This document shows, piece after piece, positions 6,879-27,173 of a stretch of 27,173 nt of DNA. Each line of letters opens with the position of its first letter. The stretch's first letter is position 1. A program made the position numbers and the translations under genes. This stretch comes from Calditrichia bacterium (GTDB lineage Bacteria; Calditrichota; Calditrichia; RBG-13-44-9), in NCBI GenBank assembly GCA_037381445.1, contig JARRQT010000036.1, positions 1-27,173 of the forward strand, written 5' to 3'. The notes beneath the pieces are model-generated. The model had not been told where the DNA came from, did not search any database, and saw only the letters and a program-made list of their open reading frames with translations.

Positions 6879-7433
6879 TCAGTAATCCACGCCGGGCTGA
6901 GCCAATATTCCCTGCTGGAAAGGATGTTTGATTTCGGTCATCTCAGTGACCAGGTCTGCGGCCTCGATTATTTCTGGTGCCGCACTCCGTCCCGTCAATA
7001 CCACATGCAGGTAGGAAGGTCGGATGCGCACCACCTCCAGAACCGCTTCCGGCGTGATCAGTTTTTCTTTTATCGCCACATTCACCTCATCCATGATGAT
7101 GAGGTCATAATCCTTATCCAACTGTTCCCTGATATATTCCAGGGTTTTGCGGGCCGCTTCTTCGTGTTCTTTGCGCGGCTTTTTATCTCCCATAATGCCC
7201 ACAAAGCCTTTTCCCATTCGTACCAGTTCCAGGTTGGGCTCCAGCTTTTTGTAGCCTTCCAGCTCTCCGTAAACCCAATCCCCTTTTATAAACTGCACCA
7301 TCAGGATTTTCCAGTTGTAGCCCGCCGCCCGGACAGCCATTCCCAAAGCAGCCGTTGTTTTTCCTTTTCCATTGCCGGTATAAACAATCATCAGGCCCCT
7401 GCGTTTGTCCCTGGGAATTTCAGGTAAAGTCAT
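6879..7433 (-). CDS. cobO: Cob(I)yrinic acid a,c-diamide adenosyltransferase (CobO/BtuR)
   Basis: YTGNGKGKTTAALG, VQFIKG, DE, VLTGR and ADLVTEMTEIKHPF motifs. Confidence 0.95.
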   Translation of the reverse strand: MTLPEIPRDKRRGLMIVYTGNGKGKTTAALGMAVRAAGYNWKILMVQFIKGDWVYGELEGYKKLEPNLELVRMGKGFVGIMGDKKPRKEHEEAARKTLEYIREQLDKDYDLIIMDEVNVAIKEKLITPEAVLEVVRIRPSYLHVVLTGRSAAPEIIEAADLVTEMTEIKHPFQQGILAQPGVDY

Positions 7434-9590: not shown

Positions 9591-10372
9591 TCAATGGCCG
9601 GCAAAAACCTGGTACCAAATGCGGATTCCCGCCATTGCTATAAGGAGATGAATTCCAATTCTAAAATATCGCGTCTTAATCATGCAACTCACATGCGCAC
9701 CCAGTTGGGCGCCCGGGAAAGCCCCTGCCACCAGTGCGGCGGCCAACATCCAGGGTATCTGACCGGTTATTTCCTTACCGGCAAGGCCAGCCAGGGCGCT
9801 AAGGAAAACGATTCCCAGATTACTTCCGATCGCAAAACGCGTGGGAATATGAAACAGGTGAATCATGAGACCGGAATGAGAATAATTCCGGCGCCCAGTC
9901 CGGCAATTCCTGAAATAATTCCTACCGTCAGCCCGGTCAGGAGTGCCGCCAGGCGGTTGAAGCTAATATCCGCAGAAGAGGCGTCAACTTCCGACCTGTT
10001 GTTAATTGAGAGAAATATTGGGGCAGTCGCAAAAACCGTCATGGCGCCAAAGATAGCCAGAATGATTTTTGAGGGCAGATAATCAGAAATGAATCCCCCG
10101 AGAAAAGCGCCGCAAAATATGCCGCCTCCCATAAAAATGATGATTTTATAATTCACGTATTTATGATGGAGGTGATGAAGCAAACCAGATGATGAAGCAG
10201 CCAGAACGTAGACAACTGAAATGGCCGCTGTTTGTTGCGCAGATAGAGATTGTCCTGTGACCAGCGGAGGAATGTAAAGGAGAAGCGGAATCATAAATAC
10301 CGCCCCTCCCAATCCCAGCAAACCTGCAACAAAGCCACCGAAAAAACCCAGCAGAAGAAGAAGCAATTCCAT
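9591..10372 (-). pseudogene. TauE/SafE (TSUP) family permease split by a frameshift near 9866
   Basis: ORF 9863-10372 (GLLGLGGAVFMIP...GIAGLGAGIILIP) and ORF 9591-9866 (AIGSNL...GAFPGAQLGA) are consecutive parts of one TSUP protein. The junction reads ATT CCG GTC TC ATG ATT. Confidence 0.85.
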
Positions 10373-11474: not shown

Positions 11475-12587
11475 TTAGGCAATACTATGGGCAAAATCCC
11501 TGGGAAGGATACCGAATCGCCGGTAAAAGCATTTGGAGAAATACGATGGATTGTTAAATCCGGTTTCCAATGCGATTTGAGCGATATTGTCCTGCTGTCT
11601 TTCAATTAATTCCAACGCCTTGTTTAATTTATATTCTTTCAGAAATTCCGAGGGCGAATATCCCGTTAAGGCAGTGGTATGCCGATATAGTTGTGACTTG
11701 CTCAAACCCATCTGGCTGTTGAAATCACCTAATTTAAATCCTGACTGATTCCAGGCTTTTTCGGCGATGCTCATCAAACGGCCCAAAAATTTTTCCTCCA
11801 TCGGATTCAAAGTTTTGACTATTCCTTCACCCGATAAGAGTTCCGATTTTTCCTTCTTATATTTGTCTCCTACCACCGAGGACATCAGTATCTGACCCTT
11901 GCCGGCCACGTAGGCCAATCGCTTGGCAAACAGAATTGCATCTCCAAAAAACTCATCCTTATCGGTAACTGGATTACCTGCACTTAAACCAATAGCCACA
12001 TCAATAGGCGGACAAGATTTTTGGCGGTTTTGTTTTCTGAAATGCTCTTGTATGTCCAGCGTGCATTTAACGGCATTGCTTGTCGAAATGAAGGAAGCCA
12101 AGATAGTTTCTCCTGTATACTCCACTTCCCGGCCTTCGTATTTCTCAATTGCCTGTTCAATCGATTCATTGCATAGTTTTAATAGACCAGCACTTTCGGT
12201 GTTTCCGAGTTTTGATTTTAACAGGGCTGTGTCCTTTAAATTGATAACCATTATTGCCCGAAATGCCGGGCCGATTAACTTAAGCAACTCGATTTCATCC
12301 CTGGCCTCGGGATCTTTAATTCTGCCTAAAAAAGCTTCCACAATATTAAATTGCACTTTGATGATTTGATTGGGTATATCGCCATGGGCCTCATTATGCC
12401 ACGAGACCACTGCTTCTTCATCCGGCGCCTCAATCAAACAAAATACATTTCCCCTTTCAGCATCAAACCAGTAGGTAAAGGCCTTGCAATTATACTTATG
12501 CTGAATCTTGATGTCCTTTTTGTGTGCCTCTGCGGCATCTATTTCAGTTATTCCCGGGGAATCATGACGATCCATGAAAATAGGCAT
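11475..12587 (-). CDS. DUF4242 (SCO4226-like) + degenerate class III nucleotidyl cyclase domain + AraC HTH transcriptional regulator
   Basis: N-terminus MPIFMDRH...AH.KD...Y...YWFD..RG.VFCLIEAP..EAV...H.EAHG. Middle region G.EV..TGE..LASF, IGLSAG.PV, FFG....A.RL, GQIL. C-terminus MGLSKSQLYR and IAQIALETGFNNPSYFSKCF..RFG..P. Confidence 0.88.
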   Translation of the reverse strand: MPIFMDRHDSPGITEIDAAEAHKKDIKIQHKYNCKAFTYWFDAERGNVFCLIEAPDEEAVVSWHNEAHGDIPNQIIKVQFNIVEAFLGRIKDPEARDEIELLKLIGPAFRAIMVINLKDTALLKSKLGNTESAGLLKLCNESIEQAIEKYEGREVEYTGETILASFISTSNAVKCTLDIQEHFRKQNRQKSCPPIDVAIGLSAGNPVTDKDEFFGDAILFAKRLAYVAGKGQILMSSVVGDKYKKEKSELLSGEGIVKTLNPMEEKFLGRLMSIAEKAWNQSGFKLGDFNSQMGLSKSQLYRHTTALTGYSPSEFLKEYKLNKALELIERQQDNIAQIALETGFNNPSYFSKCFYRRFGILPRDFAHSIA

Positions 12588-12754
12588 CGTTTTCTCCTTT
12601 CAATCTTCAGGAAAGGGAATTACATCCCGATCTATTTGAAATGTTGATGTTCAAAAACTTTATTTTGCTATACGAATGAAAGATAAGTCCATTTCCTTGA
12701 AATAGCAAATTTTACCTTCCCCATCTGTTTATTCATTGTTGCTTAAAATTCGAA

Positions 12755-12780
12755 GAAGCCTTCCCATGTGGAAAGGCTTC
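12755..12780 (-). terminator. Likely intrinsic terminator after the 195-aa lipoprotein gene
   Basis: Minus strand GAAGCCTTTCCA-CA-TGGGAAGGCTTC followed by TTCGAATTTT. Confidence 0.6.
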
Positions 12781-12823
12781 CCAATATTAAGACGATTGGT
12801 GAGTAGTCTGCACCAGCATACCA

Positions 12824-13411
12824 TTAGGGCAACAGCGCCGGATTAAGTTCCGCAAACATACCATCTTTATTATGCAGCCAGATCCAGGCGTGTAGTGTCC
12901 AGAAATTACCGACATCGTTCCACTCCCATTCATCCATCTCGCCGGTAAAGCCTTCCGGTGGTGTCCCCCCAGCCTGCGGTCCCGGAGTCGCCACCAGATA
13001 TTCAACGGCTACCAGTTTTTGGTGACCACTATTACCTACTGAATTGAAAACCAGGGCTTCCGGTTTGTCCACCTCAAACTGACCATCGACCAGAGACCCA
13101 TTGACATAATGGTCGCCCATGCCCGGAACGAAATAATTGATATTGCCATAACCGGCAGCCATGGCACTATCCAGATTATGGTATACCGCCGTTGCACTGC
13201 GAGCGGTGGCCAACTCCTTTAACAGCGTCCGGCTAAATCCGGACTCGAGCGTCAGAGTTGACTTGCTTGGGCTGGATTCTCCCTCTATTTTCTGAACGGG
13301 AGAAATCGGTGCCTCGGATTGACAACCAAACAGAAACAGCAACACCACAACTGATAGAAAAACAGGGGCGGCTTGTCGCACTCCCCAGTGAACTTCTTTA
13401 TATAAATACAT
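12824..13411 (-). CDS. Uncharacterised lipoprotein (GMG.HY / PEAL / LVAVEY / LHAW.W..N..G.FA..NP family)
   Basis: Hydrophobic signal with lipobox LFGC and GGAGG RBS. The C-terminal domain carries conserved-looking His/Glu/Trp motifs seen in an uncharacterised secreted protein family (by eye). Confidence 0.8.
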   Translation of the reverse strand: MYLYKEVHWGVRQAAPVFLSVVVLLFLFGCQSEAPISPVQKIEGESSPSKSTLTLESGFSRTLLKELATARSATAVYHNLDSAMAAGYGNINYFVPGMGDHYVNGSLVDGQFEVDKPEALVFNSVGNSGHQKLVAVEYLVATPGPQAGGTPPEGFTGEMDEWEWNDVGNFWTLHAWIWLHNKDGMFAELNPALLP

Positions 13412-13533
13412 GATGATACCTCCGTATTGTGAATGATATGATGAGTTAATTAGGTTAGAGTCCTCATGGATAATGAGTACCCTAACACTTGGCTTGAACG
13501 ATAATGCGTTCGAATAATCTCTTGGTGGTCACG

Positions 13534-13887
13534 TTATTCGCCCTGTTCCACTTCAATAATTTCATCCGGAACCATACCATGGGCTTCGCGATGAACGGCA
13601 ATGGCCGCCTCCTTGCTGGGAGCCTCGGAGAGACAATACACCGTTCCCTCATCTTCGTTGTACCAGTATTTCAGATATTTAACCCCGTACTTATCCTCTA
13701 CCTCCAGATCCTTTTTGTGGGCGTTAGCCACTGCTTCTGCGGTTAGACCTTCCAGATTTTTATGCATATCCAGATACAGATGCTTACCTGCGCTGGCCTG
13801 GGCGGATTCTGTTTCCTTACCGCAGCCCAACATTACCAGGGCTGCCAAGAACGCCCCAATCAATAGCCAATCTATTTTATGACTCAT
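13534..13887 (-). CDS. Lipoprotein with DUF4242 (SCO4226-like, His-rich) domain
   Basis: Lipobox MLGC followed by YLDMH...AVANAHKKDLEVEDKYGVKYLKYWYNEDEGTVYCLSEAPSKEAAIAVHREAHG, clearly homologous to the N-terminus of 11475-12587. GGAGGAG RBS. Confidence 0.88.
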   Translation of the reverse strand: MSHKIDWLLIGAFLAALVMLGCGKETESAQASAGKHLYLDMHKNLEGLTAEAVANAHKKDLEVEDKYGVKYLKYWYNEDEGTVYCLSEAPSKEAAIAVHREAHGMVPDEIIEVEQGE

Positions 13888-14712: not shown

Positions 14713-16707
14713 CTATTTGATCATCATCATCTTCTTCATCTGTTTATACTCACCTGCTTCAATCTGATAGAAGTAAATACCACTGGGAAGCGATATGCCG
14801 TTATTGTCTCTTCCATTCCAGGCGACAGTATGTTCTCCGGCCTCATAATAGTCGTTCGCGAGCGTTTTTACCTCCTGACCCAGGGTATTATAGACAATCA
14901 AACTCACCTGGCTGGCGCCGGGAAGCCGGAAACGAATGTCGGTTGAGGGGTTAAATGGGTTGGGATAGTTTTGCGCCAGTTCGAAGGTGGCGGGGGCAAG
15001 CGTTAGCACTGATGCTGCAATATCCTCTTTGGGAACCGGCAGACCAAAACTTTTTACCTTCGCAAACGCGACACTGGGTACATATCGTTCATTCACCGCA
15101 GGCCCGGGATCAATATCATACAAAACGCTCTGCGCCCAACTGGCGTAAACCATATTTAAAAAGCTGACGCTGAAAATATAATCACCAAAATTCGGGATAA
15201 TATTGGTGGCTGCAATCGACCAGTTGGAAGTCTCTTCGTTCAGACGGACCGGCTCCAGGAATGTCTTTCCGCCATCAAGCGACTCTGCCCAGTAAACATC
15301 CACCAGCGACTGATATGAGGAATGCCGCCTGTAGGGAGAGCCGACAGAGATATTGGTTGCCAACGGATTTGGCGGCTGAGGCTGATATTCGGTATCCTGA
15401 TAATAGAAGATGTCCACGTTTCCGCTTGGCTGGACGCTGACCACCGGCCAGAACTGGTCTTTTCCGTCACCGGGTGTTGCGCTGCTGACGAGGGTCGGCT
15501 CGCTCCAGGTGTTTCCATGGTCATCCGAATAGGAGACATAAATATCACCATCATTCACGCCTCCGGTTGCGAATTCCTCTCCGGTGCTGGTGTTTACGAA
15601 AATCCCGTTGGTGTGAATAAATGGATTATTATTCGCATCCTGAAACGTCACATAGATTCGCCCCTTGTGAATGGAATAATTGTCGACCGCGATACGCGGA
15701 AAGTCATTGCTTCCGGTCCGGTTATAACCCACCGGCGGATAGAGAGCGGTTCCGGTTATATTTTTGATGAGCTGCAGGGAACCAAATGTTTCCCCCTGAT
15801 CAAAAGAAGCCTTGAACAGGATATCCGGCGTGCCTGTGAATCTTCCCCGTTCCCACGTCACATACACTTCCCCATTGGGTCCTACCGCCACCGCCGATCC
15901 CTGCTGTCCAAGCGGATCCGGTTCTTTAACCACTGTCGGGCCCATCCACGTTCTGCCGCCATTGAGCGTGCGGTATAGCTCAATTTGCGAACCGTTTGGC
16001 GTGAAGTTGGTGACGCAGATGTACACCGCGCGACTGGTTAACCGTTTGTCAGCAGCCATGGCTTCCTTATCCAGAAAATCATCCGGACTGGGAGGAGTAA
16101 TAATATCGGGTCTCCCCCAGATCAGCCTGCTGCCCCAAAATATGCCCTTATGAACAATCATTCCAACGCCGGCAAATCCCTGACTTATTGGCCTGGCTGC
16201 AAGATTTGCAAAAAAGAAGGCCGCATTGCCGATATCCCCATTATCCAGCCATGGATCTCCCCGGGGTACAACCGGCAATCCCTCATAAGTGGCCGAAGGC
16301 AGTCCATTACCATCCTGAAAGGTCCTTCCTCCGTCAACGGAATACCCATAGCCGGTAAGACCCTCCAACTCCAGCGGCACCAAAAATCCATCGGCGTCAT
16401 TCCATCCGATTATAACATGCCTTCCTAAGGGTCCCACCGCAATAGTGGTTTCGCTGCGTCCCAGCAGACCGTAAGGCGGCTCATTCGCACTATAAAATTG
16501 CGGACCGCTAACAATTATATTGGGTCCAACCATGGGAGGAAAAATCGGGTTATGCAAAACCGGGACAATATCGGGCATAATATCATCAATTGTCAAGTTT
16601 GCAACGGGAAGGTTAACCGGCCGTTCCATATCCGCGATAATCTGACTGTTGGAAATGCCTATCAATAAACACAAATTTATGATTAAAATAATATAAATAT
16701 TTTTCAT
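14713..16707 (-). CDS. Secreted Asp-box (BNR, sialidase-like) beta-propeller protein with C-terminal FlgD-Ig / secretion sorting domain
   Basis: Signal peptide MKNIYIILIINLCLLIG (ATG 16707, GGGGGAAG upstream). Five Asp-boxes: SVDGGRTF, TLNGGRTW, SFDQGETF, SDDHGNTW, SLDGGKTF. C-terminus LAQNYPNPFNPST...YNTLGQEVKTL...WNG...SGIYFY...KKM. Confidence 0.9.
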   Translation of the reverse strand: MKNIYIILIINLCLLIGISNSQIIADMERPVNLPVANLTIDDIMPDIVPVLHNPIFPPMVGPNIIVSGPQFYSANEPPYGLLGRSETTIAVGPLGRHVIIGWNDADGFLVPLELEGLTGYGYSVDGGRTFQDGNGLPSATYEGLPVVPRGDPWLDNGDIGNAAFFFANLAARPISQGFAGVGMIVHKGIFWGSRLIWGRPDIITPPSPDDFLDKEAMAADKRLTSRAVYICVTNFTPNGSQIELYRTLNGGRTWMGPTVVKEPDPLGQQGSAVAVGPNGEVYVTWERGRFTGTPDILFKASFDQGETFGSLQLIKNITGTALYPPVGYNRTGSNDFPRIAVDNYSIHKGRIYVTFQDANNNPFIHTNGIFVNTSTGEEFATGGVNDGDIYVSYSDDHGNTWSEPTLVSSATPGDGKDQFWPVVSVQPSGNVDIFYYQDTEYQPQPPNPLATNISVGSPYRRHSSYQSLVDVYWAESLDGGKTFLEPVRLNEETSNWSIAATNIIPNFGDYIFSVSFLNMVYASWAQSVLYDIDPGPAVNERYVPSVAFAKVKSFGLPVPKEDIAASVLTLAPATFELAQNYPNPFNPSTDIRFRLPGASQVSLIVYNTLGQEVKTLANDYYEAGEHTVAWNGRDNNGISLPSGIYFYQIEAGEYKQMKKMMMIK

Positions 16708-17423
16708 AACTTCCCCCATTCATCATCCTAAAATTATTCTGGTGAAACGGAATCCTTTCATCTGTTTAATATTCCTTTTGGCTTATTTCAAAGACATATA
16801 ATGGCAATTAATTCAGTATCCCGGATTTGTTGAATCCGTAAATATTGGTTTCATGTGGAATTTGAATTGATAATTTATTTTCTACAGGTATGGAGGACTT
16901 TTATTTAGAGGAATAGATTCCACAGTTTGACCCTCTTTTGAGAAAGGGATTGGCTTCATAGGGGATAAATAGAAAAAACAATCAGGAGAACTGATCAAAC
17001 AGCTTTGGTCTTATGGCCCCTGAAAGCGCTCGGAATATGTTTTAAAAAAGAAAAAATGAGCAGGAAGCTGAATCAGATATATATGAAAAAATGAATAGGA
17101 TTAGCCGCTATGTGAAAAATAGCTACGCCGAACATTATTAAATATTTAGTGCCAAAACAAACAAATTAATATAATTATACAAAAATAAAACAATATTTTC
17201 AAGACCTAACCGGGCCACATTGCATATATTTTCCATATTGTTCAAAAATTGATACCCCAATATCAAGAAAATCAGCCACTTTGATGAATAAATTTTTTTA
17301 TGAAGGTATTTATCTTTATGAGAAGGGATTATAGACAGCATAACTAATTGCGAGGGAGGAAATCCAAATCATCGCCCTAGGTTTTTGCAGCGCTTAAAAA
17401 AAGATTTTTGGGAGAAAAAGGAT

Positions 17424-18143
17424 TTAAGACATTCTGCTATTCTTTAGCTCCTGCCACCATTTTTTCACCACACCGGATTTTCCGTACCAATCTTCATCCG
17501 TGAAACTATAGTGCTTTACTCTTTCCAAAATGATCATCATCGAGCCATTCAAAAGCGCTGAAGCAAGAGGGACGACCCCATCTCCCCACTCCTTCCCATC
17601 GCCGGTGAGATATTTATAAATCGAATATCTCACTCTCACTTCCGGCGAACCATGGGGATTTCCAAAAAGGGATTTTCCGGCAATGGAAAAATATTTTACC
17701 TCCGGGGAAAAATATGCACCCGGATACTTCTCCTCTACCCAGCGCCGGAGAAAGGCCCCCTTTTTGTTGTAATGGGGGCTCCCTAAAGTAATGATCTGGT
17801 CGACATAATCTAATCCATGATATGCCCGTTTTTGAAATGGTTGGGGACTTAAATACAAGCGGGAAATCACCCCCCCGGCACTGTGCCCAACTACAGTTAC
17901 TTTGCCGGTTTTCGATCGCTCCAGAGCGCGACGGACCATTTTATCGAGCTTAATGAGGATGCGGCTCCAGCCTGTTTTTGAAACCGCCAGAAACCACTCC
18001 CAGGGCTGCACACCGACGATAAAAACCGGCTGACCGGTGAGTTCATGCAGGGTTGTTTTCATTTCCGAATATAAGCCCGGTGCTGAAAAAAGTCCTCCCA
18101 AAATCACAACAGGCTGATTGTCATGAAAAGCGGCTGAATTCAT
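17424..18143 (-). CDS. Alpha/beta hydrolase, lipase/esterase (PGAP1-like)
   Basis: VGHSAGG nucleophile elbow, ITLGSPH, WGDGVVP (Asp) and VKHYS (His). No signal peptide. Confidence 0.88.
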   Translation of the reverse strand: MNSAAFHDNQPVVILGGLFSAPGLYSEMKTTLHELTGQPVFIVGVQPWEWFLAVSKTGWSRILIKLDKMVRRALERSKTGKVTVVGHSAGGVISRLYLSPQPFQKRAYHGLDYVDQIITLGSPHYNKKGAFLRRWVEEKYPGAYFSPEVKYFSIAGKSLFGNPHGSPEVRVRYSIYKYLTGDGKEWGDGVVPLASALLNGSMMIILERVKHYSFTDEDWYGKSGVVKKWWQELKNSRMS

Positions 18144-18173
18144 TCGAACTTTAAAATATTATGATGAAACCGG

Positions 18174-18917
18174 TTAACCGGCGGAAATATCTGTCTTCGG
18201 CTTATCCTTAATAACGCCAAGTTTTTTTGCCATTTTCAGCAGTCCCCGGCCCATACCCGATAACTGAATGACCTCGGCGGGATCATTCCATTTTTGCTCC
18301 CTCCTGATTTTGAACCAGTGCCGTGCCTCGGGTATAATGGCGATCGTATAAAGGATATTAACAATTACCGCATAAATCAAGTAATTAGTATCATGGAAGC
18401 GGAACCACAGCCAGGGAATGAGCAAAACGATTCCCGCCATGTAGGCGCTGAATACATCACGCAAGACAAGCAGTCCAATCAGCATGCCACCAATGGAAGT
18501 GGTAAAGATTGCTATCCAGTCAATCGCCAGCACACCGCCGTAAATTGTCGACAGCCCGCGGCCGCCTTTAAAACCGTAGTATACCGGCCATATGTGCCCG
18601 ACTACCCCCAACACGGCAAAAATCAGAAAGTAGTCGGTCCCGGGAAATATCTGTCTGAGGATAAGCACAGGTATAAAAATTTTGAACATGTCCAATAGGT
18701 AGGTCATAAATCCGAATTTCGAACCCACCTGCGCTGATACGGAGGAAGCACTCACCGTTTTCAGCACCATTTTTTTATCGCTTCCTTCCAGCCCGACGAC
18801 TGTTTCCTCTGCCACTTTCTTATCGGGCGCGAAAATTCTGGTGATAATTCTGGCAAACGAGATGGCGCCAATAAAATATCCCGCCAGCGCAGTAGCGATG
18901 ATAATAAAAATATTCAT
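18174..18917 (-). CDS. Divergent PlsY-family (acyl-phosphate:glycerol-3-phosphate acyltransferase-like) membrane protein
   Basis: AGYFIGAISFA, LLDMFK, GHIWPVYYGFKGGRGLST and multiple TM helices. Motifs 1 and 3 are non-canonical. Confidence 0.85.
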   Translation of the reverse strand: MNIFIIIATALAGYFIGAISFARIITRIFAPDKKVAEETVVGLEGSDKKMVLKTVSASSVSAQVGSKFGFMTYLLDMFKIFIPVLILRQIFPGTDYFLIFAVLGVVGHIWPVYYGFKGGRGLSTIYGGVLAIDWIAIFTTSIGGMLIGLLVLRDVFSAYMAGIVLLIPWLWFRFHDTNYLIYAVIVNILYTIAIIPEARHWFKIRREQKWNDPAEVIQLSGMGRGLLKMAKKLGVIKDKPKTDISAG

Positions 18918-18928
18918 GAACGGCCTCC

Positions 18929-21442
18929 TTAATTTTCTAAAATGTGTTTAAGGTAAACCCTACCGTTATTTCCGTCCAGCGTTATGGGCTGACCATCCTT
19001 AATCAGCCGGGTGGCTTTTTTGACACTAACAACCGCCGGTAGTCCGTATTCCCTGGCGATGATGGCGCTGTGCGACAGTTGTCCTCCGCTTTCGGCCACG
19101 ATGCCCCCGATTCCCGGGAATAGCGGCGTCCACCCCACATCTGTGAAAGGAACCACCAGAATGTCGTTTCTGGTCAGTTCGGTCTTGACATCCGCCGGGT
19201 CCAGAATGACCCGGGCATACCCCTGTATAATGCCTGCACTGCCCGTTATTCCCACCAGATAATCCTGATCGCCCGCATAAACGGCGGCAAGATTCGCAAT
19301 CATATTTTCGCAAATAATATCTTCGGGTTCAATATCAGAATCTAATTCCATCTGCTCTTTACGGGACTTGACCAGATTTTGGATTGAAGCCGACGGTTCA
19401 GGGTTCTCGATGAGCTCCTGCAATTCGGCGAAAGACAAATAGAATATATCTTCTGTTTCATTTATGATGCCCTCATTTCTCAGGTAATTTCCCAGCTCGA
19501 GAAATATTCGCCGCGCCTGATATGCATCCTCGGACATCTGAAAACTGGTTTTCTCGCGGAACTGCAAATAAAGGATAGTAGATTTCAGCAGGCGATTGAA
19601 TAAAGGCCTTAACGCCCAGTTCATATTTTGGTTTACTTTAAAATGTGCTTCTCTCCTCACTTTCCCGGCGTTTTCATATTTTACTTTTTCCGGAGCCGCC
19701 GCCAGCCTCCCGATTGCCTTCCAGACCAGTTCGGGATTCTCAATCCAGGGCGAAACAGTGAAATCCGTGCCGCTGATGCTCAGAAATCCGAATTGTTTCA
19801 GGAAGCTATCCACTTTTTTCAAGAGCATTCTTCCTTCTTCGCTCCCTGCCAGCTTTCTGTGGATGTTCTCGATATTATCTTGCCGTATCGTATTAAGGAT
19901 TTTTCTGTCCGCCTTTCTCACCATTGAGCCCAGCAAGGCCAGCTTCTGATTCGGTTCCAATGCCTTCAATCCAATTAATCCCTTGATCAGATCTCCCGGC
20001 TGAACCTCCGCGGCAAATTTTCTGACCACTTTTTTCAGGAGTTTATTGCGGATGTTCATATTCATGGCGCCGATCCACATCCACCACTGGGTTTTGCCAT
20101 GCTCCTTGCTTAATCGCAAGACAGCTTCCATCAGCTCCTGAGGCGTTTTCTCCGTCCAGTTGGAATTTCTGTACGATTCCAGAAATTGATTATGTTTCCC
20201 CAGAAATTCTTTGATATCGTTTTTAATCCCCGAATAAAACCAGACAAAACGCACTAACCGAAAAAAAGTGTGAATAAGACGGATATTAATCTCCGGACGC
20301 CGGCGAACTGCTCCCTCATCCCGGGTCATCATCTCAAAGAAATTTGAAGGGAGACCGATACGCTCCAGGAGCTCTCCGACAAAGGTAATATTTGCATATA
20401 CCCGGGAATGAATGTGCTCCGTCATTTCGGAAAAATCGAGTTGGTTCGGACCGATGATTTTTGCGAACATTCTCCCGAATACATTTCTGGTCATGGCCCG
20501 GACATTGGTTGTCCAGTACAGCGGTTTAATCAGCCCCGGTGACATTTCCGCCACCAGTTTCCGCGAATAAATTCTTTTGCCGGCCAAAGAAGTAATCGGG
20601 CGGGACTGCAAAAAATGGAATTCGGCACCATCCCACGCCCATTCAATGTCCTGCGGCAATTTGGCTCTAAAAGATATGGCCCTTGCCAGTTGTGAAAGCC
20701 GCAGGACCTGTTCTTCAGGGAGCACGGGACCATTTCTCTCCGACGAATAACTTTCCGATATGACGCCTCTGGTGTTTACGACATAGCGGTCGGGTACAAT
20801 CTTACCGCCTGCCACGCCGTCTCCCAGACCGGCTGCTGCCTCGATAATCACGTTCCGCCGGCCGGTGAAGGGATCCGCTGTGAATGCCACACCCGCTGCT
20901 TCAGCATTGACCATTCGCTGCATAACGATGGCCATAGCAGGACCGTGAAGTTCAGCCACTGCACGAGTTTCTCTTTGCTGGGAGAGATATCCGGTGAGTC
21001 TTTTATTGAAAAGGGATTTGTAGCATCCCACTATAGCTGCAACCAGTTCCTGCTCTGTTTTCACATTGAGAAAGGTATCGAGCTGGCCGGCAAAGGAAGC
21101 GCTCACACTGTCTTCACCAACCATGGATGAGCGGATTGCCACAGGCGCTTCCAGTTTCTGAAACGCTTTAAAAAAATTTTTTCGAATATTTTCGGGAATT
21201 TGAAAATCAATAAAATCATCTTTTTGCAGGCCTACCAATACATCCTTATCATTCGCAGCAATTTGGCGACTCTTTTGACGGGAGAAATTCAGAATTTCTG
21301 CCAGGGCGTGCGTTGTAATAATAAATGCTTCAGGAACATTAAATCCCATTCTGGCCAATCTTGCCAGACTGGCGCCCTTACCGCCGGACAGTGTTTCCTG
21401 AGCGGCACTCTTTTCGCGGATACTGATAATGGAACGGGCCAA
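18929..21442 (-). CDS. ATP-dependent dikinase with RPH/PigC architecture (PPDK_N ATP-grasp, substrate domain, C-terminal swivel phospho-His domain)
   Basis: GGKGASL, AIRSS..GED...SFAGQ, QRMV..AGVAFT, GLGD.V, PQDIEWA, LQSRPIT, and C-terminal TDVGWTPLF and GGQLSHSAIIAREYGLPAVV. TTG start with GGGGA RBS. Confidence 0.92.
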   Translation of the reverse strand: MARSIISIREKSAAQETLSGGKGASLARLARMGFNVPEAFIITTHALAEILNFSRQKSRQIAANDKDVLVGLQKDDFIDFQIPENIRKNFFKAFQKLEAPVAIRSSMVGEDSVSASFAGQLDTFLNVKTEQELVAAIVGCYKSLFNKRLTGYLSQQRETRAVAELHGPAMAIVMQRMVNAEAAGVAFTADPFTGRRNVIIEAAAGLGDGVAGGKIVPDRYVVNTRGVISESYSSERNGPVLPEEQVLRLSQLARAISFRAKLPQDIEWAWDGAEFHFLQSRPITSLAGKRIYSRKLVAEMSPGLIKPLYWTTNVRAMTRNVFGRMFAKIIGPNQLDFSEMTEHIHSRVYANITFVGELLERIGLPSNFFEMMTRDEGAVRRRPEINIRLIHTFFRLVRFVWFYSGIKNDIKEFLGKHNQFLESYRNSNWTEKTPQELMEAVLRLSKEHGKTQWWMWIGAMNMNIRNKLLKKVVRKFAAEVQPGDLIKGLIGLKALEPNQKLALLGSMVRKADRKILNTIRQDNIENIHRKLAGSEEGRMLLKKVDSFLKQFGFLSISGTDFTVSPWIENPELVWKAIGRLAAAPEKVKYENAGKVRREAHFKVNQNMNWALRPLFNRLLKSTILYLQFREKTSFQMSEDAYQARRIFLELGNYLRNEGIINETEDIFYLSFAELQELIENPEPSASIQNLVKSRKEQMELDSDIEPEDIICENMIANLAAVYAGDQDYLVGITGSAGIIQGYARVILDPADVKTELTRNDILVVPFTDVGWTPLFPGIGGIVAESGGQLSHSAIIAREYGLPAVVSVKKATRLIKDGQPITLDGNNGRVYLKHILEN

Positions 21443-21857: not shown

Positions 21858-22595
21858 TTACCTTCGCAGCATTGCCTTGGTAAAAGTATAATCCGGGATA
21901 TCCGCATTAAAAAGAATCGATTCCAGGATAAATTCGGTGCCGTCGCCGCTCTTCAGCACATCTTTGAAAATTATATCGGTTGCCACCCAGCGGCCTTCAA
22001 TCTGCTCCACCTTCTGCACAACTGTCGTTTTCAGGAGCTTGCCGCTCTTTGCATACCTGTTTTCTTTCAACACCACAAAGCGGTCCTTGTCAACCCAGAT
22101 TTTTCTTGAGAAATAAGCGATGTCGGCATTTTTCGCGCTTAGATCCAGAATCCAGCAGGGACGCCCCATGAACTCTTCATCGCCTCCCATGCTGGCGTCA
22201 TAAAGATTTATGAGCTTGGGATCCTCCATGAGATCTTCGTAGGAGAGATCGGAACCCATTACCGACTGCCTCAGCATATGCCCGGAAATCAAAATGGTGC
22301 GATCCGTGGAAGGCGTATAGGTCCAGAGCTGATCCTTTAGCTTGAGCATTTTTATTCCTTTTTCCCGGGGGGGCGCCAGGTATTCGGTGAAGGAGTGATT
22401 CATTCCCTGTATCCAGGATTTGGATTTCACCATGCGTGTCCCCCGACGTCCCTTTATATGCATTTCCGCAATGCTGATTTTATTGTCGGAACCCATATTC
22501 TCATCAACTTTTTTAAGAATCCAGTCTCCGGTTGGGACCTGTGCCGTTAATAAAGAGAATAAGATCAAAACAAGAAAAATACAGTAATTTCTCAT
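21858..22595 (-). CDS. LolA-like periplasmic protein ('outer membrane lipoprotein-sorting protein' family)
   Basis: Signal peptide, P.REKG.KMLK, W.Y.PS.DR...IS, QSVMGSDLSYEDL, Y.RKIWVDK and SGKLLK. Confidence 0.88.
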   Translation of the reverse strand: MRNYCIFLVLILFSLLTAQVPTGDWILKKVDENMGSDNKISIAEMHIKGRRGTRMVKSKSWIQGMNHSFTEYLAPPREKGIKMLKLKDQLWTYTPSTDRTILISGHMLRQSVMGSDLSYEDLMEDPKLINLYDASMGGDEEFMGRPCWILDLSAKNADIAYFSRKIWVDKDRFVVLKENRYAKSGKLLKTTVVQKVEQIEGRWVATDIIFKDVLKSGDGTEFILESILFNADIPDYTFTKAMLRR

Positions 22596-23866
22596 GCTTC
22601 CAGTTCCTTGGCTAGTTGAGATGTTTGCCGTTTGTATATGCCAATTCCCGAAATAGATGTCCCCAGGATCGTGGCCATCAAACCGGGAATGAATCCAATC
22701 ATAAAGCTTACCGGAGTCACCCTGGCCCGCAGAACATCAGAAATCATCATGGATGCGTTCTTCAACATGGAGGAAATGTCTATCCCGTGGATCTGCAAAT
22801 AATAGGAAATACCGATTCCCAGGCCGGTCCCGATCATGGAACCCATAAAACCGATCATCAAAGATTCTGCAAGCATGGAACGATAAATGTGCCCCTTGTC
22901 CTCGCCCAGTGCCAGGCGGACGCCAATCTCGCCATAACGCCGCAGACTTCCCATTAACCCTGCGTTCCAGAGCACAATTGACATGACAATCACAAAGATT
23001 CCGATCAGCGCCGCGGAGACATAAGCGGACAGGTCGAGCGTCTGGGCAAGCCCGCTCTGATTCCGCAGGGTGATCATTACCGGTGCGAACTGATCTTCAT
23101 CTTCCTTATAGGAATCATTAAATCCTGCGGCGATTCCCTCTGCGAGTTCATTGCGGTAAATGTCATCCCGGAAAAAACCCAGAATTTCACCCGCAGCATC
23201 ATCCATGTCCAGTGCCCTTTGAATGTCCGAGATATCCGCCAGCATTGCCCCCCTATCCATGGCGGAAATGCCAAAGCGGATGGTTCCCACCACGGTAAAA
23301 TTGTAGGTAGACATGCTGCCGTACATCGTCGAACTGATAAGTGTGGCAATATCATTCAGTTTCACATTCAGACGCTGCGCCAGTTCATCGCTGATTAAAA
23401 TCTCCCCGGGATTCTGCGGCAATCTTCCCCGCAGCAATGCATCAGACAGATTCAGAATTTCCGGTTCAGGGCTCTGCGGCGACAGAAAATCAATCGACAA
23501 TCCCACCACAGGCCCCTGGCTGCGGGTTTCTCCCTCCGCGTCAGGAATGTCCAGCAGTCCACCGAACCGAATTCGCGGCGTCCATTTCATATCCGGAAAT
23601 TCTTTTTTTAAATCGCCCAGCAATTCTTCGACCCCGATATAAGCCAGGTCATTGGGGATCTGATCGGATTCCTGCGCATAGGCGCGGGACATGATTTTGA
23701 CATGACCTGTGCTGAAGTTGGCATTGGCCCGTATCAGATCGATTTCGGTGCCTTTCACCCAGCAATACATGATGACGGTGAGAGTAACACCAGCCACCAC
23801 GGTCAAAGTGGGAAAGAGGCTCCGCGAGCGGTCACGGATCAGTCCTTTGAACAGAAATTTTATCAT
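22592..23866 (-). CDS. ABC transporter permease, LolC/E-MacB (FtsX) family
   Basis: TM1, large periplasmic domain (TGHVKI, GRLP..PGEILI), RRYGEIGVRLALG and three C-terminal TMs. Confidence 0.92.
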   Translation of the reverse strand: MIKFLFKGLIRDRSRSLFPTLTVVAGVTLTVIMYCWVKGTEIDLIRANANFSTGHVKIMSRAYAQESDQIPNDLAYIGVEELLGDLKKEFPDMKWTPRIRFGGLLDIPDAEGETRSQGPVVGLSIDFLSPQSPEPEILNLSDALLRGRLPQNPGEILISDELAQRLNVKLNDIATLISSTMYGSMSTYNFTVVGTIRFGISAMDRGAMLADISDIQRALDMDDAAGEILGFFRDDIYRNELAEGIAAGFNDSYKEDEDQFAPVMITLRNQSGLAQTLDLSAYVSAALIGIFVIVMSIVLWNAGLMGSLRRYGEIGVRLALGEDKGHIYRSMLAESLMIGFMGSMIGTGLGIGISYYLQIHGIDISSMLKNASMMISDVLRARVTPVSFMIGFIPGLMATILGTSISGIGIYKRQTSQLAKELEA

Positions 23867-25035
23867 GTCAGTTTCCCCCGCAAGGCATCGGTCGGCTTCA
23901 ATTTCGAAATTTTTCTGGTGGGCAGGAAACTGACAATGGTGGTGATAATCAAAACCAGCAAAGTGGTGCCCAGGACGAGGCCGGCACTGAACGTCGGGAA
24001 GAGCTTTTCCCCGATGGCAAATCCATAGCTGTCAGTATTGGATGGCAATTTCCAGCCGATGCGCGCAAAGTATGCCAGCAACGGGATCCCGTAGAGAGCA
24101 GCAGCCAAAGCGGCCAGCACGCCGTGCATGGCGCCTTCCAGGGTAAAAAGCTGAATCACCTTCCCCCGGGTGAGGCCCAGAGCCATCAAAGTGCCCATTT
24201 CCTTTCGGCGGCGGAAAATCGATAAAATCTGGGTGTCGAAGATGGCCAGCATTGCCAGAAAAAGCAGGATGAAATAGATAATGGTTGAACCGATTGCCTT
24301 GGATTGCACCATATCCCGGATATCCTTGAGCAGATAATCCGGAGTTTTGAAGTTCCAGCCGGCAACCGCGGTGGCATTTTGAGCCGTCTTGTTGATGATG
24401 ACTAGTGTTGCTTCATCCTCCATCCCCGCCAACTGCTGCAGTTTCTGCAGGGGAATCCATATCTGGCTGTTATCGATGCTCTGTACGGTGGTTTTCATAA
24501 CTTGAACGATCCGAACATCCTGTGCATCAAAGGTCCCTCTGGCATCCCGCCACTGCATGGTCACATAATCTCCCACCTTTAATCCGGTACTTTTCGCCAT
24601 CCGGCTGCCGATAAGGGCGGGGATTTCGCCATCGGATTGCGCCAGAAAATGGGAAGGCAGGGTAATTATACTTTGCGCCGGACTGATGCCCTTAAGCAGA
24701 ATGGTGCGGATGCGGCCGTTGGGATAAATATTGCCCTGAATGATGAGCAGCGGCGTCGCCTCCCCGCGATCAACCATCCTCTTCAGGTCCCCGGGAATTA
24801 CGCCGTGGGCGTCCTGCAGCGAAAGGGGATCGAACGGATCGTAGTTTTCATGCCAGTACTGACCGCCCCCGTATTGGGTGTCAATCATCGCCTGCGCAGC
24901 CTGCTCATTCATACCCTCCAGCAGTCCCTGGGTAGTGATGATGGCCACGAAAGCAAACGACAGCACGATAACGTTCAACCAGGTACGAATGCCGGCACCC
25001 AGAATATTTCTTACTGCCAGTTTAGGGATTATCAT
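23863..25035 (-). CDS. ABC transporter permease, LolC/E-MacB (FtsX) family
   Basis: KLAVRNI, RRKEMGTLMALG, EG and P...I..L.P.DALR. Overlaps its neighbours. Confidence 0.92.
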   Translation of the reverse strand: MIIPKLAVRNILGAGIRTWLNVIVLSFAFVAIITTQGLLEGMNEQAAQAMIDTQYGGGQYWHENYDPFDPLSLQDAHGVIPGDLKRMVDRGEATPLLIIQGNIYPNGRIRTILLKGISPAQSIITLPSHFLAQSDGEIPALIGSRMAKSTGLKVGDYVTMQWRDARGTFDAQDVRIVQVMKTTVQSIDNSQIWIPLQKLQQLAGMEDEATLVIINKTAQNATAVAGWNFKTPDYLLKDIRDMVQSKAIGSTIIYFILLFLAMLAIFDTQILSIFRRRKEMGTLMALGLTRGKVIQLFTLEGAMHGVLAALAAALYGIPLLAYFARIGWKLPSNTDSYGFAIGEKLFPTFSAGLVLGTTLLVLIITTIVSFLPTRKISKLKPTDALRGKLT

Positions 25036-25753
25036 TTTTCACCTTTTTTTGTCCGGAAGGGGAAAACAGCTCATCCCTGGCGATTTTCCCGTCAAATAAT
25101 GAAATCTTTCGCTGCAGGTAGCGAATGACTTTTTCATCGTGAGTGGAAAAGAGAAAAGTGGTCCCCAACTCGCTATTCAAATTTTTCATGGTCTGCAGGA
25201 TGTTGTGAGAATTCTCCGCATCCAGGTTCGCGGTTGGTTCATCCGCCAGCACAATCGCCGGCCCTTTCACAATAGCGCGGGCGATCGCCACCCGCTGGCT
25301 CTGCCCCCCCGACAACTGGTTCGGTTTGGACTTCGCCCGGTCTGCCAGATACACCCACTCCAGCGCATCCATCACTTTTTTCTTCCGCTCCTCGGCAGTC
25401 AGATTCTGAAGCAGTAAGGGGAATTCCACATTTTCAAAAACCGTGTAAACGGGCAGCAAATTGAAGGTCTGGAAGATGAAACCGATATGTTTGTTGCGGA
25501 GCTGAGCAGCCTTCTTATGCGAAAGGGTTTCCACCTTCTCCCCCAGTACTGAAGCACTTCCCGTTGTAGGAACATCCAGTGAGCCGATAATATTCAGCAG
25601 CGTGGTCTTCCCGGACCCGCTGGGTCCCACTAGACCGGCGAATTCGCCTTTCTTAAGGGTAAGATTTACTTCGCTCAGCGCCACCAGTTCATATTGGCCC
25701 ATCGGGTATATCTTTGTCAGATTCTCTGTTTTGATCAAAACTTCATTTTCCAT
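25022..25753 (-). CDS. ABC transporter ATP-binding protein (LolD/MacB-like)
   Basis: Walker [39 protein letters not shown] and STHD. Confidence 0.96.
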
Positions 25754-25803: not shown

Positions 25804-26952
25804 TTAGTGATTCAGCACAATCATCAGTTGGACTCCTTTTCCCGCGAAGAGATTATTTCCCGCCTGGTTCTGATAGATCCTGTTTTTGTCCGGATTCAGG
25901 AAAGCCATCAGGTGGAAGCTCCAATGATCGTATGTCCTTCGCCAGTTCAGAAAGCGGTAATACTCACTGTTTTCCCAGTCATAATAGAAAATGCCCTCCA
26001 CTCTGTCCAGCAAACCAATCGGATAACTGAACGATCCGGCCGAAAATTTAAGTCCCTCCCCTTTTCCTAACGCCTCCCGGGAATTCTCCAAAATAAAATA
26101 TTCGCTCATAACGTTCAATCCGTTGCCGATGTCGAAGGTATAATCCGCCCCCAGTGTGGCGGATCTCTGCCAGACAAAGGGCAGCAGCGGATTATCCTGA
26201 TGGGTCAGAACTCCCTCAAACCAAAAGCCAATCTCCACATCCCATTTGCCATCTACCGCAAAGCGATTTTCGTAGGAGACCTCCTCATTCAATTTCATCT
26301 GCGGGAAACTCATATAGTTGAAGGACATCTGTCTCTGGTGAAAGGAGAATCCAATCTCTCCCGCAGATAAAGGGTATTGGAGTCTTCCGCCGTATTCAAA
26401 GGAATTTTTGCGGGTTTCATAAACCTCCCATCCCCTGGTGTGCTTATTTCCATACAAACCCCAAATCCAGAAATTGGCATTATTCATAAAATAATACCGG
26501 AATAACAGGGCGTACACCCCATCGGTGATCTGCAGGGGATCTCTGGGATCAATGGCGTCGAACCACATCAGGGGACGAAAGAGCGTCGCCGAACCGAAAT
26601 TGATTTTTTGCAGTCCCAGCCTGGCTTCGAAACGGGCTGTCGCAAAACGAATCCACAAGCGGTACGGTTTAATTTCCCCTTCGGAATCGACATTCCTGAG
26701 TGTTTCGAACTGACCGTTTCGATAACCATTGAACGAAGCTTCCAGATTAACCGCTTTGTTGTCGGAAAACATCTTCTCAACTGCAAAACTTGGAATATAT
26801 CGGAGACCGTAGAGATTCAGGGTTCTGTCGGATCTATTAACGGAGTACCAACCTGATAGCTGTCCCTGATAATCCAGAACCTGAGCAAAGAGAGGCCAGC
26901 CAATTAAGATGAGAGTGAGTATGCATCCCGGAATGACTCGGGTTCGATGCAT
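25804..26952 (-). CDS. Putative outer-membrane beta-barrel protein
   Basis: Signal peptide from ATG 26952 (GAGGAAATC RBS). Alternating aromatic beta-strands; RLGLQKINFG and DPRDP...DGV.A patterns as in barrels found with LolA-like/ABC operons. Confidence 0.72.
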   Translation of the reverse strand: MHRTRVIPGCILTLILIGWPLFAQVLDYQGQLSGWYSVNRSDRTLNLYGLRYIPSFAVEKMFSDNKAVNLEASFNGYRNGQFETLRNVDSEGEIKPYRLWIRFATARFEARLGLQKINFGSATLFRPLMWFDAIDPRDPLQITDGVYALLFRYYFMNNANFWIWGLYGNKHTRGWEVYETRKNSFEYGGRLQYPLSAGEIGFSFHQRQMSFNYMSFPQMKLNEEVSYENRFAVDGKWDVEIGFWFEGVLTHQDNPLLPFVWQRSATLGADYTFDIGNGLNVMSEYFILENSREALGKGEGLKFSAGSFSYPIGLLDRVEGIFYYDWENSEYYRFLNWRRTYDHWSFHLMAFLNPDKNRIYQNQAGNNLFAGKGVQLMIVLNH

Positions 26953-27173
26953 GATTTCCTCGTCCTGAATGCATTTGATATTTAAGCGTAAAACGGATAA
27001 AAAATCAAACAATTCCGGCTGCTGTTCAAAAATAATTCAAATTTTCCTAGATGGCAATAGAATTATTGCCCAAAATCAATCTTGATTTGTTATAGGCTCA
27101 TTTCGGAAAGGTGTGCTTTTCTTCGGCAATGCGGCGCTTTGATCCGGTATTTGTATGAAAACCACTTTCCACC

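Follow-up and report, generated by a model that had tools for sequence, protein, structure and literature searches.

The window, by which we mean the whole 27,173-nucleotide stretch analysed here, is one entire contig (JARRQT010000036.1) of the 5.1-Mb genome of a Calditrichia bacterium (GCA_037381445.1; completeness 92%). It carries an operon of eight genes, all on the minus strand, in which a dikinase gene is preceded by five transport-type genes and followed by genes for a PlsY-like membrane protein and a small hydrolase. We find that this module is real, intact, widespread and uncharacterised. Judged by conserved residues, its PlsY-like protein keeps the acyl-phosphate pocket of PlsY and has lost the site for glycerol-3-phosphate (G3P).

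Organization of the operon

The three-gene core is intact. It encodes an 837-amino-acid (aa) dikinase of RPH/PigC architecture with a TTG start (18929..21442; PPDK_N and PEP-utilizers domains), a 247-aa PlsY-fold membrane protein (18174..18917; G3P_acyltransf domain, predicted model and residue map) and a 239-aa GHSAG alpha/beta hydrolase (17424..18143; PGAP1-type Pfam match, Ser88-Asp188-His211). The 11-bp gap between the dikinase and plsY-like genes and the 30-bp gap before the hydrolase gene agree with an earlier, sequence-only reading of this DNA, as does the ribosome-binding site of the plsY-like gene, an AGGAGG that overlaps the dikinase stop codon just 5' of the plsY-like ATG. No clear ribosome-binding site was seen in the inspected start region of the hydrolase gene, and a promoter and terminator scan gave counts at chance level. 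That reading overlooked the five co-conserved transport genes upstream and the non-standard character of the PlsY.

The transport genes encode a predicted outer-membrane beta-barrel of the porin/DUF1302-like type (402 aa, 25804..27012; nearest ESM Atlas clusters porin, score 0.99), a LolD/MacB-type ATP-binding cassette (ABC) ATPase (243 aa, 25022..25753; PF00005), an FtsX/MacB-type, LolC/E-like permease (390 aa, 23863..25035; PF02687 and PF12704), a second FtsX-type permease (424 aa, 22592..23866; PF02687) and a LolA-like periplasmic carrier (245 aa, 21858..22595; PF17131, E 4e-54), whose gene ends 415 bp before the dikinase start. With its LolD-like ATPase, FtsX permeases and LolA-like carrier, the module resembles the type VII ABC transporters LolCDE-LolA and MacAB, a group that also includes YbbAP-TesA and the heme exporter HrtBA. 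However, its proteins fall below every curated cut-off, and it has its own barrel gene. The best NCBIfam match of the ATPase is LolD (239.9 bits, cut-off 307.75), the permeases score 61.8 and 29.2 against LolCE (cut-off 362.45; LolD and LolCE models TIGR02211 and TIGR02212), and the barrel protein has no Pfam or NCBIfam match.

Conservation and spread

Related loci were drawn from the best 80 of 397 species-genome stretches and the best 80 of 526 metagenome stretches, 160 in all. A dikinase gene lies at the PlsY-like locus in 74/80 genome and 64/80 metagenome loci; where at least 400 bp are available on both sides, the two genes adjoin in 68/70 and 38/39, respectively. This linkage is far beyond chance, and the neighbourhood survey proposed with the sequence-only reading thus bears out a recurrent pairing. 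By record titles, the genome loci span about a dozen phyla: hosts include Calditrichota, Acidobacteriota, Aminicenantes, Zixibacteria, Chloroflexota, Bacillota and Cloacimonadota, and further KSB1, WOR-3, Krumholzibacteria, Fibrobacterota, Bacteroidota, Desulfobacterota and Actinomycetota. The nearest loci, again by record titles, belong to uncultured Calditrichaceae (PlsY-like identity 70-71%), and DNA matches in sequencing runs came from metagenomes of salt marsh, possibly the source, and of sediment, with no RNA run among those listed. Ornatilinea apprima (L094) is a cultured carrier of the module. Both orthologues, dikinase and PlsY-like, occur in the same 5 of 40 relatives. The sequence-only reading knew of no characterised pathway of this kind, and we likewise found no description of the dikinase/PlsY pair in the literature searched, a body of text with most subscription papers and supplements outside it.

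The transport genes recur with the pair. An FtsX-type permease is present in 59/80 genome loci (42 of the 48 loci of at least 12 kb), a LolA-like gene in 48/160 loci and a barrel homologue in 29/160. Two-membrane hosts have the barrel, ATPase, two permeases and LolA-like gene at the module, and in Chloroflexota modules the two permeases are fused into one protein of 861 aa, which an HlyD adaptor may accompany; adaptors of the HlyD type occur in 14/80 genome loci. The hydrolase, which had been read as part of a lipid route, turned out to be optional (36/160 loci). An ICMT/PEMT-like gene is found in 26/160 loci and joins the hydrolase only once, and less frequent neighbours are a chelatase-like gene (11/160), a secreted hydrolase (8/160), DUF454 (8/160) and a PucC-family transporter (16/160). 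Because many loci are short, these accessory counts are lower bounds. Fisher tests were set aside as evidence, since kin genomes are not independent.

The dikinase

The dikinase has the RPH/PigC domain order, an ATP-grasp domain, a substrate domain and a C-terminal His swivel. The top fold match of its predicted model (predicted local distance difference test, pLDDT, 84.7) is RPH-Lm (5HV1, E 1.9e-42). Among 67 aligned homologues, K22, R104, R629 and H791 are kept in 67/67, as are T/S123 and E/D630, in agreement with the earlier claim of intact motifs. These positions are the equivalents of Lys22, Arg117, Thr136, Arg666-Glu667 and His825 of RPH-Lm (5FBS/5HV1), and the RPH catalytic residues are termed critical in PMC4844700. 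Thus, by domain order and catalytic Lys, Arg, Arg-Glu and His, the protein falls within the broad RPH-like His-swivel group and is an active-looking kinase.

Within that group it stands apart. It is only ~24% identical to RPH-Lm in the fold alignment, and scores 335.8 against the curated RPH model NF041857 (cut-off 999) and 332.9 and 326 against the PigC/RedH models NF052631 and NF052632 (cut-offs 1300 and 1350). Unlike RPH and the condensing enzymes PigC, RedH and HapC, with which it shares its three-part layout, it comes with a membrane partner and an ABC system. It is also unlike PEP synthase and PPDK, in that its His domain is C-terminal and no pyruvate-binding Pfam domain is present (TIGR01418, 239.8; cut-off 739.75). 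The dikinase matched RPH/PpsA-like genes in a plasmid collection. The cyanobacterial PlsY-dikinase fusions mentioned in the sequence-only reading did not appear among proteins of 469-2000 aa in a search with the PlsY-like alignment, itself a weak search.

The window genome has other genes of this kind. A second RPH-type dikinase (C164:10829-13303), ~27% identical to module dikinases, lies in a cluster with a glycosyltransferase, a methyltransferase and a polysaccharide flippase, and contig C188 carries three clustered long PPDK_N frames (609-1091 aa).

The PlsY-like protein

The earlier assignment of the membrane protein to the PlsY family stands for the fold and the acyl-phosphate pocket, but not for G3P binding. 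The predicted model (pLDDT 87.3) has the seven-helix fold and matches PlsY alone (Z 22.3 to 5XJ5, next 6.4; root-mean-square deviation 3.0 over 197 residues; Foldseek E 4e-7), whereas the sequence scores 63.8 bits against TIGR00023, below the cut-off of 137.2. The clade comprises 418 matches, the best 120 at 53-96% identity, with 144 representatives at E <=1e-30. Residues were mapped in 121 close homologues by alignment to 5XJ5 with the genome's canonical PlsY as a bridge, and residue roles follow the Aquifex aeolicus PlsY paper (PMC5700162).

Compared with PlsY (5XJ5-5XJ9, PF02660, TIGR00023), the fold, His92, the Gly-rich phosphate hole and Ala40/Thr41 all have counterparts: H108, G118, G119, G121 and A57 are invariant, and S/T58 is kept in 121/121. 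The G3P clamp does not. Ser142 is replaced by Tyr and Asn180 by Glu in 121/121, Lys104 by Arg, and His177 by M, I, A, S or T; the Arg45 position is variable and the Ser35 position unsure. No close homologue (0/121) has a GSGN or HxxN motif, a beta-hairpin replaces the GSGN loop, Asn37 is apparently gone, and there is an extra C-terminal MGRG helix region. In 112 more distant representatives the Asn180 position is Glu or Asp in 86 and the Lys104 position varies freely. In Aquifex PlsY, PMC5700162 gives a loss of >95% of activity for N180D alone.

The window genome has two PlsX-family genes, one of them in a fab operon, and a canonical plsY near gpsA. Unlike the PlsY of the PlsX/PlsY and FakAB/PlsY routes, the PlsY-like protein partners a dikinase, while the canonical gene sits elsewhere in the genome. 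Given the lost G3P site and the separate PlsX and PlsY genes of this genome, we conclude from these residue and gene comparisons that the PlsY-like protein is a distinct clade outside PlsY proper and that the module is accessory. The plasmid collection queried with it returned canonical PlsY only. Even if the product should prove to be a lipid, hundreds of proteins named glycerol-3-phosphate acyltransferase PlsY would be mislabelled, and conclusions on ester-lipid synthesis that lean on PlsY counts would be affected.

A third, diverged PlsY paralogue of the same genome (C332:1313-1882) keeps GSGN and has no His177/Asn180 motif. Two different PlsY-like genes lie together at loci L059, L070, L098, L140, L162 and L219, with two dikinase/PlsY-like pairs in tandem at L140; this doubling hints at two acceptor specificities or a heterodimer.

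The hydrolase and accessory genes

The triad of the GHSAG hydrolase reported earlier (S88, D188, H211) is conserved in 100% of 121 homologues, and the protein has no strongly hydrophobic segment. Among 201 Anaerolineae-class genomes the family occurs in 15, with eight close and seven distant copies. Seven of the eight close copies are in module-type genomes, and six of the seven distant ones are in the only six genomes with reaction centres. Across 301 Chloroflexota genomes, 18 of 23 with reaction centres have the family, against 11 of 278 without. In three genomes (G477, G446 and G335) a tandem hydrolase pair lies two genes upstream of bchU and a bacteriochlorophyll synthase gene, both above profile cut-offs; in a fourth (G276) bchU was not confirmed. 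According to PMC3150298, bchU and bchK are grouped with chlorosome genes in Chloroflexus. The closest relatives of the window hydrolase come from phototrophs, and in a quick tree of 81 rows, three of whose module rows were mislabelled 'other', module and phototroph copies form a group with support 100 that leaves out ten others.

Phototroph copies of the hydrolase (loci L324, L331 and L318) often lie beside ArsA/Get3-type ATPases. The hydrolase had no match in the plasmid collection, and viral contigs gave 14 weak loci; a contig labelled as a giant-virus metagenome-assembled genome (L333:6001-6546) encodes a relative at 31% identity. The plant protein At5g17670 may be similar. The preprint bioRxiv 10.1101/2021.05.20.444919 gives At5g17670 no function.

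At related loci, three different ferrochelatase-like proteins accompany the pair. A membrane-anchored one, with four invariant His, matches Ferrochelatase and CbiX in 12/12 members, all at E <=0.01 (best 6.5e-14 and 1.2e-13), and has a two-domain class II profile. It is present in 8 of the 201 Anaerolineae-class genomes, each time as a neighbour of the dikinase or PlsY-like gene and frequently between the two; a further, broken copy lies by itself. No relative of this chelatase-like protein turned up in the plasmid collection or on viral contigs. The second lies within the L140 operon (PF00762, 29.1 bits; cut-off 27), and the third, at the actinobacterial locus L115, is head-to-head with the dikinase (hemH E 4e-19, below cut-off). 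Because the three barely align with one another, separate recruitment of ferrochelatase-fold genes in different lineages is suggested. Proteins of this fold are known as binders of tetrapyrroles.

Six of the 201 Anaerolineae-class genomes also encode a secreted chlorophyllase/cutinase/PETase-like hydrolase (at least 42% identity), always beside module genes. Stay-green Mg-dechelatase was present in one of five module genomes, which is uninformative, and DUF454 may be linked to heme. HupE/UreJ with DUF6512, or CbiQ-type energy-coupling factor genes (nickel/cobalt uptake), adjoin some Anaerolineae modules (L099, L106, L107, L111, L091 and L188).

Proposed function

We consider it probable that the kinase feeds the PlsY-like protein, that the acceptor is something other than G3P and that ABC transport follows. 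A high-energy product fits this scheme, because the dikinase spends two high-energy bonds and its partner keeps an acyl-phosphate pocket. As to the substrate, the helper genes suggest chlorophyll- or heme-like pigments over ordinary phospholipids, an assignment taken from gene neighbours only. Given three ferrochelatase-fold recruitments and the pigment-operon relatives of the hydrolase, we favour the propionate of a chlorin or porphyrin over a fatty acid. Tentatively, then, we read the module as an accessory system by which an amphipathic acid is activated, converted and exported; among the candidates for this acid, a tetrapyrrole is the likeliest.

The chemical steps are inferred from the observed gene order, co-conservation, folds and residue conservation. 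Esterases would cut ester groups, namely the cytoplasmic hydrolase of the window and, in Anaerolineae, also the secreted chlorophyllase/cutinase-like enzyme; in some lineages the ferrochelatase-fold protein may remove or swap a metal. The dikinase would convert ATP to AMP and Pi and pass phosphate from His791 to a carboxylate at the Arg629-Glu630 site, yielding an acyl-phosphate. This could be held in the phosphate hole of the PlsY-like protein (His108, G118-G119-R120-G121, Ala57/Ser58), which would move the acyl group to a nucleophile other than glycerol-phosphate (a long-chain alcohol, an amine or a carbon of the substrate itself); the invariant Glu197 might serve as base. Extraction of the product from the inner membrane would fall to the type VII ABC transporter, and in bacteria with two membranes the LolA-like carrier would hand it on to the barrel.

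A more specific version, which we think quite unlikely, is prokaryotic chlorophyll catabolism, in which the PlsY-like protein closes pyropheophorbide to 13-2,17-3-cyclopheophorbide enol for ABC export. Dephytylation, demetalation and 13-2 de-esterification would give pyropheophorbide, the dikinase would make the 17-3 acyl-phosphate, and Glu197 would close the ring without a second substrate; re-esterification to a long-chain alcohol is the alternative. Ring closure, which needs no second substrate, would account for the vacant acceptor site and the newly gained Glu. Chlorophyll catabolism to cyclopheophorbide enol in protists would take the same steps as the proposed module: removal of the phytyl group, the metal and the 13-2 ester, activation of the 17-3 acid and ring closure. 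PMC6775998 reports the enol from protists and sediments, with a genetic basis that it describes as unknown. That system is reported from microeukaryotes (PMC6775998). Its likeness to the module is one of chemistry only.

Several observations weigh against the tetrapyrrole proposal. For the enzymes, we know of no His-swivel dikinase that phosphorylates a carboxylate, and the oxyanion residue Asn37 of PlsY is apparently lost, with the beta-hairpin making the alignment there unsure. Hosts live in dark anoxic sediment, with little need for photodetoxification. None of the three chelatase-like proteins has a match in the window genome, nor does the secreted hydrolase or a PucC reference, and any of four tetrapyrrole-pointing genes is found in only 59/160 loci. 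We rejected PucC as a specific marker: it is present in 57 of the 201 class genomes and beside the module in only two. The PETase profile outscores Chlorophyllase for the secreted hydrolase, and PDB matches of the window hydrolase are generic Bacillus-type lipases (best E 1e-5); for this enzyme it is gene context alone that suggests pigments. Because chlorosomes also hold lipids, the phototroph hydrolases may be lipases instead. Their link to phototrophy is drawn from about two lineages: the six Anaerolineae-class phototrophs are syntenic kin, and the family is absent from 5 of 23 Chloroflexota phototrophs. The dikinase was found in none of five phototrophs tested; together with the dark anoxic hosts and the missing chelatase-like and secreted-hydrolase genes of the window genome, this speaks against ring closure in particular. 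Of ten PlsY-like regions fetched in the Anaerolineae-class survey, two have no dikinase and one has it ~5 kb off. Finally, lipid-type genes lie, scattered, beside some loci.

These lipid-type genes bring in the main rival, synthesis of an unusual lipid, which we regard as somewhat unlikely. Here a fatty acid would be activated to its acyl-phosphate by the dikinase and then joined by the PlsY-like protein to an acceptor that is neutral or cationic, such as a fatty alcohol, an amine, a sugar or a hopanoid, and Lol-like delivery would carry the lipid to the envelope. The retained acyl-phosphate pocket and the Lol-like transport genes agree with it, as do a FakA/DegV fusion upstream at L038 and L043, an acyl/thioester-reductase-like short-chain dehydrogenase/reductase at L069, L071 and L156, single desaturase, LPG synthase and PlsC-type neighbours, and the ICMT/PEMT-like gene in 26 loci. 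However, in a scan that covered 54 of 134 candidate neighbours, the remainder being permeases or likely shadow open reading frames, each lipid neighbour occurs in just one to three loci. An unusual lipid would also leave three separate ferrochelatase-fold recruitments and the bchU-operon relatives of the hydrolase unexplained. The sequence-only reading had gone further along the lipid line, with the hydrolase freeing a fatty acid, the dikinase turning it into acyl-phosphate and PlsY acylating G3P, bypassing PlsX/FakAB. Operon order, the PlsY fold and the acyl-phosphate pocket would suit such salvage to lysophosphatidic acid, but the route is very improbable, given the loss of the G3P clamp and the PlsX and PlsY that this genome already encodes. 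Equivalents of Arg45, Ser142, His177 and Asn180 are replaced in 121/121, GSGN and HxxN are gone, N180D alone cripples Aquifex PlsY (PMC5700162), and the hydrolase is absent from 124/160 loci, many of them short.

In place of acyl transfer, the dikinase could phosphorylate the hydroxyl or enol of a hydrophobic compound such as phytol, a fatty alcohol or a xenobiotic, with the ABC system pumping out the product and the PlsY-like protein only presenting the substrate or binding the phospho-product. RPH is the nearest solved structure, rifampin, aromatics, aniline and pyrrole aldehydes are substrates of the characterised relatives listed, Asn37 seems lost (where the alignment is unsure), the spread is patchy (5/40 relatives) and HlyD-type adaptors occur at 14 of the 80 genome loci. 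Yet carbonyl-binding Ala57 and Ser/Thr58, needless for a phosphate monoester, are kept in 121/121, and the score of 336 lies far from the RPH cut-off of 999. We consider such RPH-like modification and efflux unlikely. Phosphorylation of an alcohol acceptor by the dikinase, the second idea of the sequence-only reading, is a further candidate.

Should the tetrapyrrole proposal hold, a His-relay dikinase would make an acyl-phosphate and a PlsY fold would be turned to a non-lipid acceptor or to ring closure; neither such dikinase chemistry nor such use of the PlsY fold is described in the papers that were searchable. It would also give abundant, uncultured lineages of sediments a part in what becomes of chlorophyll or heme. 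Ring closure, if true, would supply the first candidate genes for a reaction whose genes were stated in 2019 to be unknown, and a bacterial source for sedimentary chlorins.

Other genes in the window

Downstream of the operon by 700 bp lies a gene for a 668-aa secreted BNR-repeat protein with a FlgD-Ig/Por-type C-terminal sorting domain (14713-16719), which is not among the recurrent clusters of related loci. At 11475-13887, an AraC regulator with an N-terminal SCO4226-like nickel-responsive domain adjoins a stand-alone SCO4226-like gene and a gene for a 195-aa unknown. A TauE/SafE gene (9863-10372) spans 154 of 237 profile positions and is overlapped by 4 bp by a 91-aa open reading frame (9591-9866), so it may be split. 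A CobO/BtuR corrinoid adenosyltransferase is encoded at 6879-7433, 10 kb from the module, and another directly follows the PlsY-like gene at locus L074.

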